The notes below the pieces were generated by a model that saw only the letters and a list, made by a program, of their open reading frames with translations, did no database searches and was not told the origin of the DNA. Both the position numbers and the translations under genes were made by a program. Shown one piece after another: positions 2,895 to 3,421 of a stretch of 10,589 bases of DNA (positions are counted from its first letter, which is position 1; every line of letters begins with the position of its first letter). Source of the stretch: a virus (lineage: Duplodnaviria; Heunggongvirae; Uroviricota; Caudoviricetes); the IMG/VR virus record IMGVR_UViG_2609459825_000010. One strand, 5' to 3'.

Positions 2895-2922
2895 TTGCGG
2901 GGAAAGGATAGTTAAGTAGAAT
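2895..2922 (+). promoter_or_regulatory. Putative sigma70 promoter of the hok mRNA (-35 TTGCGG 2895-2900, 16-nt spacer, -10 TAGAAT 2917-2922)
   Basis: Hexamers read directly. The predicted start near 2929 coincides with GGGTGCTTGAGG, which matches the 5' end of plasmid R1 hok mRNA (GGCGCUUGAGG...) as recalled. Confidence 0.5.
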
Positions 2923-2984
2923 TGCTGCGGGTGCTTGAGGCTATCTGTCTCAGGCATGAATACCAAAAGGCAGATAGAGAAAAG

Positions 2985-3050
2985 CCCCAGTTAACATTAC
3001 GCGTCCTGCAAGACGCTTAACATTAATCTGAGGCTCAATCTATGAACGGC
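2985..3050 (-). ncRNA. sok: Putative Sok-like antisense RNA (coordinates approximate)
   Basis: On the - strand: -35 TTGCCT (rc of 3080-3085), 17-nt spacer, -10 TAACCT (rc of 3057-3062). This is the same position as the sok promoter in hok/sok loci and is antisense to the mok start region. The 3' end is not well defined; a hairpin GCGTC-N6-GACGC lies at about 3002-3017. Confidence 0.35.
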
Positions 3051-3254
3051 AAATCTAGGTTAGCCTCTTACGTGCCGAAAGGCAAGGAGAAGCAGGCTAT
3101 GAAGCAGCAAAAGGCGATGTTAATCGCCCTGATCGTCATCTGTTTAACCGTCATAGTGACGGCACTGGTAACGAGGAAAGACCTCTGCGAGGTACGAATC
3201 CGAACCGGCCAGACGGAGGTCGCTGTCTTCACAGTTTACGAACCTGAGGAGTAA
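3042..3254 (+). CDS. mok: mok-like leader reading frame (in-frame N-terminal extension of hok, 70 aa)
   Basis: ATG 3042 sits in the conserved CUAUG context of hok-family leaders. Here the frame is continuous with hok. Whether it is translated as a separate Mok product cannot be judged from sequence. Confidence 0.4.
   Translation: MNGKSRLASYVPKGKEKQAMKQQKAMLIALIVICLTVIVTALVTRKDLCEVRIRTGQTEVAVFTVYEPEE
3099..3254 (+). CDS. hok: Hok/Gef-family type I toxin (51 aa)
   Basis: MKQQKAMLIALIVICLTVIVTALVTRKDLCEVRIRTGQTEVAVFTVYEPEE has the hallmark Hok/Gef motif (TRK.LCE.R.R.G..EVA.F.AYE) and is close to HokD/RelF as recalled. RBS AAGGAG at 3084-3089, 9 nt upstream. Confidence 0.9.
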   Translation: MKQQKAMLIALIVICLTVIVTALVTRKDLCEVRIRTGQTEVAVFTVYEPEE

Positions 3255-3322
3255 GAGACCCGGCGAGGGAGAAATCCCTCGCCACCTCTGATGTGTCAGG
3301 CATCCTCAACGCACCCGCACGT

Positions 3323-3349
3323 AACCCGCTTCGGCGGGTTTTGTTTTTT
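3323..3349 (+). terminator. Intrinsic terminator at the 3' end of the hok mRNA
   Basis: Hairpin AACCCGC-TTCG-GCGGGTT followed by TTTTGTTTTTT. Just upstream, CCTCAACGCACCC (3304-3316) is complementary to the 5' end GGGTGCTTGAGG (2929-2940), consistent with the hok 5'-3' fold-back (tac/fbi) pairing. Confidence 0.7.
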
Positions 3350-3421
3350 CCTGGCATTCTGGTTTACAATTCGCACGCCAGCCTGAACAACTGGCACCTG
3401 CTGCGCCAGCAGAGACAACCG

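Follow-up and report, generated by a model that had tools for sequence, protein, structure and literature searches.

Does a small toxin gene in a lambdoid prophage come with everything needed to control it, and could the whole still work? The question is raised by positions 2895–3350 of IMG/VR record IMGVR_UViG_2609459825_000010 (Caudoviricetes), a stretch of 10,589 nucleotides (nt) that we refer to as the window. An earlier note, made by a model from the letters of the DNA, had proposed a complete hok/sok-type type I toxin–antitoxin locus here, and every element that it listed was found in the place it gave. Its sequence marks the region as a complete hok/sok-family type I toxin–antitoxin module of the hokD/hokW subtype. 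Our full reading, to which we assign a probability of about 0.82, is that of a complete and probably functional module of this type, governed by a predicted switch like that of plasmid R1 and likely to help lysis when the prophage is induced. The remaining uncertainty concerns the activity and the role of this copy and not its identity. The module itself is ordinary and already known, a known system in a known place.

The toxin gene and its predicted fold-back messenger

The open reading frame (ORF) of the hok toxin is intact and occupies positions 3099–3254 on the plus strand, encoding 51 amino acids. It matches Pfam PF01848 (HOK_GEF) with an E value of 2.6e-22 (78.6 bits, cutoff 22) and PHROG 251 ('MokW-like host killing') with an E value of 2.8e-32. 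The RefSeq name for the identical sequence is HokD. The alignments to hokD/relF and to R1 hok/sok that the earlier note had proposed were run, and the predicted protein shares 50 of its 51 residues with K-12-type HokD and 21 with R1 Hok; the corresponding values are 47/51 for HokW of phage 933W and prophage Sp5 and 40/51 for HokC-type proteins. The locus thus combines at least 90% Hok identity to HokD or HokW with residence in a lambdoid prophage, the two features by which the hokD/hokW subtype was assigned. A Shine–Dalgarno (SD) sequence, AAGGAG (3084–3089, plus strand), lies 9 nt 5′ of the hok ATG and is kept in the alignments.

For comparison, hok loci were gathered from Escherichia, Kluyvera, Citrobacter, Erwinia, Pantoea and Photorhabdus, together with one R1-type IncF plasmid. 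The mok-like leader ORF was in frame with hok, as had been claimed. It begins at an ATG at 3042 and runs to 3254 (plus strand; 70 codons, with a 19-codon N-terminal extension of Hok), as in R1. This in-frame form is canonical, because 933W mokW and the R1-type plasmid locus carry the same 19-codon extension. The mok frame has its own SD, GAGG at 3030–3033 (plus strand), 8 nt 5′ of the mok ATG. GAGGC is invariant in 19 homologues, and the mok SD of R1 is the same GAGG motif (PMC9841398). The exact 51-residue and 70-residue products were each found on at least 1000 contigs.

Three mok layouts are seen among close relatives (L053/L080/L115/L015 and L011/L012, aligned to 3042–3101). One is the in-frame 19-codon extension. 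In the second, an out-of-frame ORF of 19 codons ends in a TGA that overlaps the ATG of hok (ATGA), and the third, present in Kluyvera copies, is a 68-codon out-of-frame ORF. Given these three layouts, the Mok peptide is not conserved; only translation through the hok start region is kept. Such variable frames fit the published view that it is the translation of mok that matters and not its product (PMC9841398).

The codon for Tyr47 of Hok lies in an in-frame TACG motif (3237–3240, plus strand), a candidate site for A-to-I editing by TadA that would convert Tyr to Cys. The surrounding TTACGAA is invariant in 19 of 19 diverse loci, the R1 type included. Published reports describe editing of the equivalent Tyr codon to Cys in hokC, hokD and hokE (PMC5630033, PMC12214031). 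A second in-frame TACG is present at a mok Tyr codon (3069–3072).

The RNA around these frames also carries a signature of the family. Rfam RF01794 ('sok antitoxin (CssrC)') matches 2929–3104 on the plus strand over the full model (1–157) with 112.4 bits (gathering score 59) and an E value of 1.5e-25. Because the match is on the hok sense strand, with a 3′ end that spans the hok start region, it represents the sense leader and not Sok itself. It fixes the 5′ end of the mRNA at G2929. The 5′ end like that of the R1 hok leader, which had also been claimed, is present. The predicted full-length mok–hok mRNA is about 420 nt long (2929–3349, plus strand); the Rfam start, the terminator, the fold z-score and covariation all point to it.

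Folding of 2929–3349, a check that had been proposed for the locus, gave a stable 5′–3′ pairing. The minimum free energy (MFE) is −169.4 kcal/mol, as compared with −126.0 ± 6.0 kcal/mol for shuffled sequences (z −7.2), and the MFE structure includes the predicted helix between the tac and fbi elements. Here GGGTGCTTGAGG (tac, 2929–2940, plus strand) and CCTCAACGCACCC (fbi, the fold-back inhibitory element, 3304–3316, plus strand) form 12 complementary pairs with one bulged C. In the same fold, positions 2983–2988 pair with the mok SD region (3030–3035). They belong to the putative ucb element, an anti-SD box AAGCCCC at 2982–2988 (plus strand), of which GCCCC is invariant or nearly so in the 19 homologues.

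When the fold is restricted to 2929–3303, the predicted partners change. Positions 2929–2936 now pair with 2982–2988, so that tac is bound to ucb instead of fbi, and 3030–3035 pair with 3062–3067 (plus strand). The latter is the putative dcb element, AGCCUC, in which GCCTC is invariant. In R1, the tac/fbi stem keeps the full-length mRNA closed and ucb covers the mok SD; after 3′ trimming, the tac/ucb and mok SD/dcb pairs leave the RNA open for translation and for Sok binding (PMC9841398). In silico, 3′ truncation of the predicted window mRNA reproduces this published refolding.

The structure is supported by comparison across loci. The RF01794 leader was found in 18 of the 20 related loci searched, and among these 20 no Rfam leader match was obtained for L027 and the K-12-type hokD locus (L003). 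In 18 of 19 loci the first 12–13 nt are complementary to a segment 45–56 nt past the hok stop; in this set of 19, a duplex search of L040 found no fbi at the usual distance. The helix shows compensatory changes. Position 4 is U-A in 12 loci, C-G in 6 and U-G in 1, position 11 is G-C in 14, G-U in 4 and A-U in 1, and position 12 is G-C in 14 and A-U in 4. Projection of the window MFE structure onto the 19-sequence alignment left 85.5% of the cells paired, as against 38–46% when the partners were slid by 1–3 columns, although this percentage is somewhat favoured because the projected structure comes from one of the aligned sequences. Double-sided changes were observed at 44 pairs, as compared with 11–19 with slid partners. 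None of 500 shuffles reached the observed pairing and covariation values. The counts of compensatory changes are stronger evidence than the paired percentage. The fold-back complementarity described in the earlier note is thus both predicted in the window and conserved outside it.

Putative promoters, the predicted antisense RNA and its variable tail

The promoters were placed by position, by conservation and by a published sokW mutation, and not by score. The putative hok promoter (2895–2922, plus strand) consists of a −35 box TTGCGG (2895–2900), a 16-nt spacer and a −10 box TAGAAT (2917–2922). G2929 is the seventh base past this −10 box. Among 67 non-identical close relatives, the 6-nt distance between TAGAAT and the conserved GGGTGC of the 5′ end stays constant, while the flanks further upstream are of many unrelated kinds. 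On the minus strand, the putative sok promoter (3057–3085) has a −35 box TTGCCT (3085–3080), a 17-nt spacer and a −10 box TAACCT (3062–3057), which would place the antisense start at about 3050. This region is almost invariant in the 67 relatives. It coincides with the promoter of the annotated sokW, and the 'pro-less' sokW primer YO-421 of Takada et al. replaces exactly this −10 box (PMC8621323). Both promoters that had been claimed, one for hok and one positioned like that of sok, are present in the sequence; their weak consensus matches are backed by conservation and position.

The predicted sok gene extends over about 71–80 nt on the minus strand (2980–3050); the annotated 933W sokW maps to 3050–2980. 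Folding of the candidate Sok RNA by itself gave a 5′ tail of 13 unpaired nt, then a long, terminator-like hairpin and a U-rich UUUUCUCU end. At the level of sequence, it spans the mok SD and ATG. An intrinsic terminator (3323–3350, plus strand), with a stem-loop at 3323–3340 followed by a T run to 3350, would close the hok transcript as had been proposed. It is the sole terminator-like site in 2750–3450 and is kept in most close relatives; it is absent from 933W.

Variation in the module is concentrated in one place. Entropy is 0.94 bit per column at 3040–3049, against about 0–0.1 over most of the module in the 67 relatives. The hypervariable patch (3035–3056) covers the Sok 5′ tail, its target in the loop of the SD/dcb hairpin and mok codons 2–5. 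Compared among the window, L001, L004–L015 and L052–L131, it has at least eight alleles and is the sole hypervariable patch of the module. Escherichia coli ECMA0423 and Shigella flexneri SFBU1023 each carry three copies, and within each genome all Sok-tail alleles differ. This proves nothing by itself, because with about eight alleles such differences are expected often by chance, and only two genomes are concerned. The Sok recognition tail is nearly the only thing that varies among related prophage copies, and so offers a simple handle on antitoxin specificity and on the switching-off of Sok at induction.

Proposed mechanism, probable role and alternatives

The mechanism that we propose follows the R1 model. 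The weak promoter at 2895–2922 would produce the roughly 420-nt mok–hok mRNA starting at G2929. In the full-length RNA, tac (2929–2940) would be locked on fbi (3304–3316) and ucb (2982–2988) would cover the mok SD (3030–3033), so that the RNA could neither be translated nor bind Sok. Slow 3′ trimming would then take off the terminator and fbi. The freed 5′ end would capture ucb and the mok SD would re-pair with dcb (3062–3067), forming a hairpin whose loop is the Sok target. Ribosomes translating mok from 3042 onward would open the hok start region, and the 51-residue membrane toxin Hok would be made. While synthesis of the short-lived Sok RNA (3050 to about 2980, minus strand) continues, its 5′ tail would pair with the mRNA over the mok SD and start codon, and the resulting duplex would be degraded. 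Once Sok synthesis stops, Hok would be produced. In this scheme, the elements, their alternative folds and the conservation and covariation of both are as described above; from them we infer how the module would be transcribed and processed, how toxic its product might be and what role it could have.

For the role, we rely on the experiments with hokW–sokW of Sp5, which is an experimentally shown type I toxin–antitoxin system (Takada et al. 2021, PMC8621323). HokW is toxic and is neutralised by SokW expressed from its own promoter, in partial dependence on RNase III and Hfq. After mitomycin C, SokW vanishes fast and in a RecA-dependent manner. HokW is in the inner membrane about 1 h before endolysin appears, and Sp5 without hokW–sokW gives half the phage yield (all PMC8621323). 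Because of these experiments, a helper of lysis and release on induction is the most likely role for the window module as well. By this analogy, the trigger is most likely prophage induction, and the effect would be earlier membrane damage and phage release.

A possible but less probable role is prophage addiction or stabilisation, or abortive-infection defence, instead of help with lysis. The annotation of 933W does carry the note 'prophage maintenance'. However, the sole direct experiment on the subtype points to help in phage release, and the deletion had no effect on growth (PMC8621323). Protection against T4 by hok/sok was not reproducible (PMC13047441), and hok is not enriched beside defence systems. 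Addiction and abortive infection are thus less supported than lysis help on induction.

Several observations weigh against a functional module with this role. A consensus sigma-70 promoter scan of 2750–3450 reported no site on either strand, and for this reason both promoters are called weak consensus matches. Position 47 of the predicted Hok is Tyr and not Cys, and so full toxicity may depend on editing by TadA. The Sok-tail allele of the window differs from the tested hokW allele at nine positions between 3041 and 3055. Since the genomic position differs, the role may not transfer from Sp5/933W. Finally, according to the summary of a recent preprint, intact chromosomal hokA, hokB and hokC failed in tests of post-segregational killing and of rifampicin (bioRxiv 10.1101/2025.08.07.668861).

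Some of these points bear on the idea that the module is intact but physiologically silent, kept by hitch-hiking on prophage DNA, with Hok never reaching a toxic level owing to a weak hok promoter, an excess of Sok and a toxin in need of RNA editing. The promoters are indeed weak, editing reached 6% in K-12 hokD (PMC5630033, PMC12214031), and many copies in E. coli are truncated, as in K-12. Against silence, all regulatory elements are visibly constrained, with compensatory changes. The close relative hokW–sokW is active from its native prophage position (PMC8621323), and HokW is toxic although it has Tyr at the same position. We consider silence improbable. Chance resemblance, or a small ORF miscalled as a toxin gene with no system at the RNA level, has nothing in its favour other than the weak promoter scores and is refuted by the Rfam match (E 1.5e-25), the Pfam match (E 2.6e-22), the fold (z −7.2), the covariation and the 93% identity to a characterised system.

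The induction-linked reading also raises the question of how Sok would be switched off. In the window, hok is inside the pR operon and points the same way as the operon from O to Q. The 933W copy is close to attR and shares its strand with int, xis and the pL operon at attL (L133, AF125520 57400–61670; L132, AF125520 1–9000); placed across attP from the pL/int operon, it becomes contiguous with read-through from pL only once the prophage has been excised. We infer that N-antiterminated early transcription reading through either locus would pass over the module in the direction of hok and meet the sok promoter head-on. In a survey of the orientation of 81 loci, based on the longest open frame in 400-nt flanks, the downstream flank ran in the same direction as hok in 16 of 18 clusters of flanks; upstream, 15 flanks were plus and 12 minus. 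This heuristic is unreliable, because it miscalled the annotated 933W neighbour.

We therefore put forward, tentatively and as a pair, that the Sok-tail patch creates orthogonal 'immunity types' and that early read-through into the sok promoter shuts off Sok on induction. If true, the immunity types would allow a cell to carry several hok/sok modules of prophages with no cross-neutralisation between them, and the read-through could explain the hitherto unexplained RecA-dependent loss of SokW.

Prophage setting and known relatives

Within a lambdoid prophage, the module occupies the nin region of the early-right arm, with the replication genes on one side and Q on the other. The neighbours are all on the plus strand: an O-like replication gene (1085–2047), a DUF968/HNH gene (3702–4751), RusA and Q (5135–5956). 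Further downstream on the same strand are three tRNAs, an STnc100 small RNA and a nanS-p-like esterase gene. The host of the prophage is Escherichia, and the prophage is lambda-like. A query of 551 bp with the module has a 100% identical counterpart in E. coli O10:H32 NMBU-W12E19 (NZ_CP042892), where RefSeq annotates only 'hokD'. The query was matched in 4956 of 5426 complete E. coli genomes, in 3113 of them with at least 80% query coverage, at a median of 2 and a maximum of 11 places per genome. The whole window (1–10589) had no match with at least 80% coverage in the complete E. coli genomes; the best covered 70% at 97.5% identity. By these alignments, the prophage is a mosaic that is not represented as a whole in the genomes searched.

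The tRNA genes 3′ of Q (7256–7505, plus strand) are a Met-type (CAT), an Arg (TCG) and an Arg (TCT) gene; RefSeq names the first tRNA of the matching cluster in NZ_CP042892 tRNA-Ile. STnc100 (RF02076) has a full-length match at 8343–8552 (plus strand; 145.6 bits, gathering score 47), between the tRNA cluster and the esterase gene. Upstream of the module is an unannotated hydrophobic ORF of 27 codons (2804–2887, plus strand), whose ATG overlaps the stop of the preceding ORF (2463–2807) as ATGA. It ends 7 nt before the hok −35 box, and its length is kept in at least 10 protein variants. The product is found on 79 contigs, where it is named 'bacteriophage protein' or 'hypothetical protein'. A cluster look-up grouped it with 121-residue DUF551 proteins, which we reject as spurious; the sequences share nothing.

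Homology between copies in unrelated contexts begins just upstream of the hok −10 box, at about 2910. It ends at about 3317–3345: in 933W and Kluyvera directly behind fbi, and in K-12, E. albertii and a metagenome-assembled genome from soil behind the terminator. Judged by these borders, the roughly 420-bp unit behaves as a portable cassette. Near other hok loci we noted CRISPR-DR4 repeats about 95 nt upstream of the hok leader in Erwinia sp. CGal63 (L045 1050–1197 and 1292–1440), and matches to the sRNA-Xcc1 family in Photorhabdus and Erwinia tracheiphila (L033 417–504; L048 1776–1865).

hok/sok has been a textbook case of antisense-RNA control since the 1980s, and a further copy is of little discovery value. 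The hokD/hokW subtype has been annotated since 1999, in phage 933W, and its characterisation in Sp5 followed in 2021. RefSeq annotation of the identical sequence names the hokD coding sequence alone, and the locus cleanly exemplifies the full mok/sok/fbi module, which K-12 hokD has lost.

The closest known system is hokW–mokW–sokW of 933W/Sp5 (AF125520), which has the same architecture element by element and 92.8% nucleotide identity over the mRNA between its 5′ end and fbi. The 933W annotations of mokW, hokW and sokW map base-for-base to 3042, 3099–3254 and 3050–2980. The −35 and −10 boxes of sok are identical, both loci have an in-frame mok with 19 extra codons, and 933W also has the upstream ORF of 27 residues. 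The Sok tail and mok codons 2–5 of 933W are a different allele, with nine differences between 3041 and 3055. The C-terminus of Hok is FTVYEPEE in the window and FVDYESEK in HokW, and the terminator hairpin that follows fbi in the window is missing from 933W. The location also differs: the window copy is in the nin region between O/P and Q, whereas that of 933W is next to attR, on the int/pL strand.

K-12 hokD (relF, in the Qin prophage) is almost the same gene, with a single Hok difference (A46V). The 3′ untranslated region, fbi and the terminator are the same, as are the downstream neighbours, namely a small ORF, the DUF968 gene ydfU and the Q-like ydfT. However, the homology of K-12 hokD starts only at about 3085; upstream of it lies relBE, and no Rfam leader match is obtained. 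The K-12 copy is therefore without the hok promoter, tac, ucb, sok, the sok promoter and the mok start. From this alignment, K-12 hokD is a 5′-truncated derivative and the window carries the untruncated form. Because the regulatory parts lost from K-12 hokD are all seen in the window, the description of this copy as potentially functional rather than decayed was right at the sequence level.

The more distant R1 hok/mok/sok locus (parB) has the same plan as the window: tac/fbi, ucb, the mok SD GAGG, dcb, an in-frame 19-codon mok extension, a hairpin upstream of the hok SD, the TACG motif at the Tyr codon near the C-terminus, and a terminator behind fbi. Over the mRNA, 63.5% of positions are identical. 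The R1 system is plasmid-borne and acts in post-segregational killing, whereas the window copy is in a prophage. Loci of the hokC (gef)/mokC/sokC type have the same leader, with Rfam scores of 112–116 bits, and fbi at the same position. Their leader is shorter and lacks the extended Sok hairpin segment found at 2998–3015 of the window.

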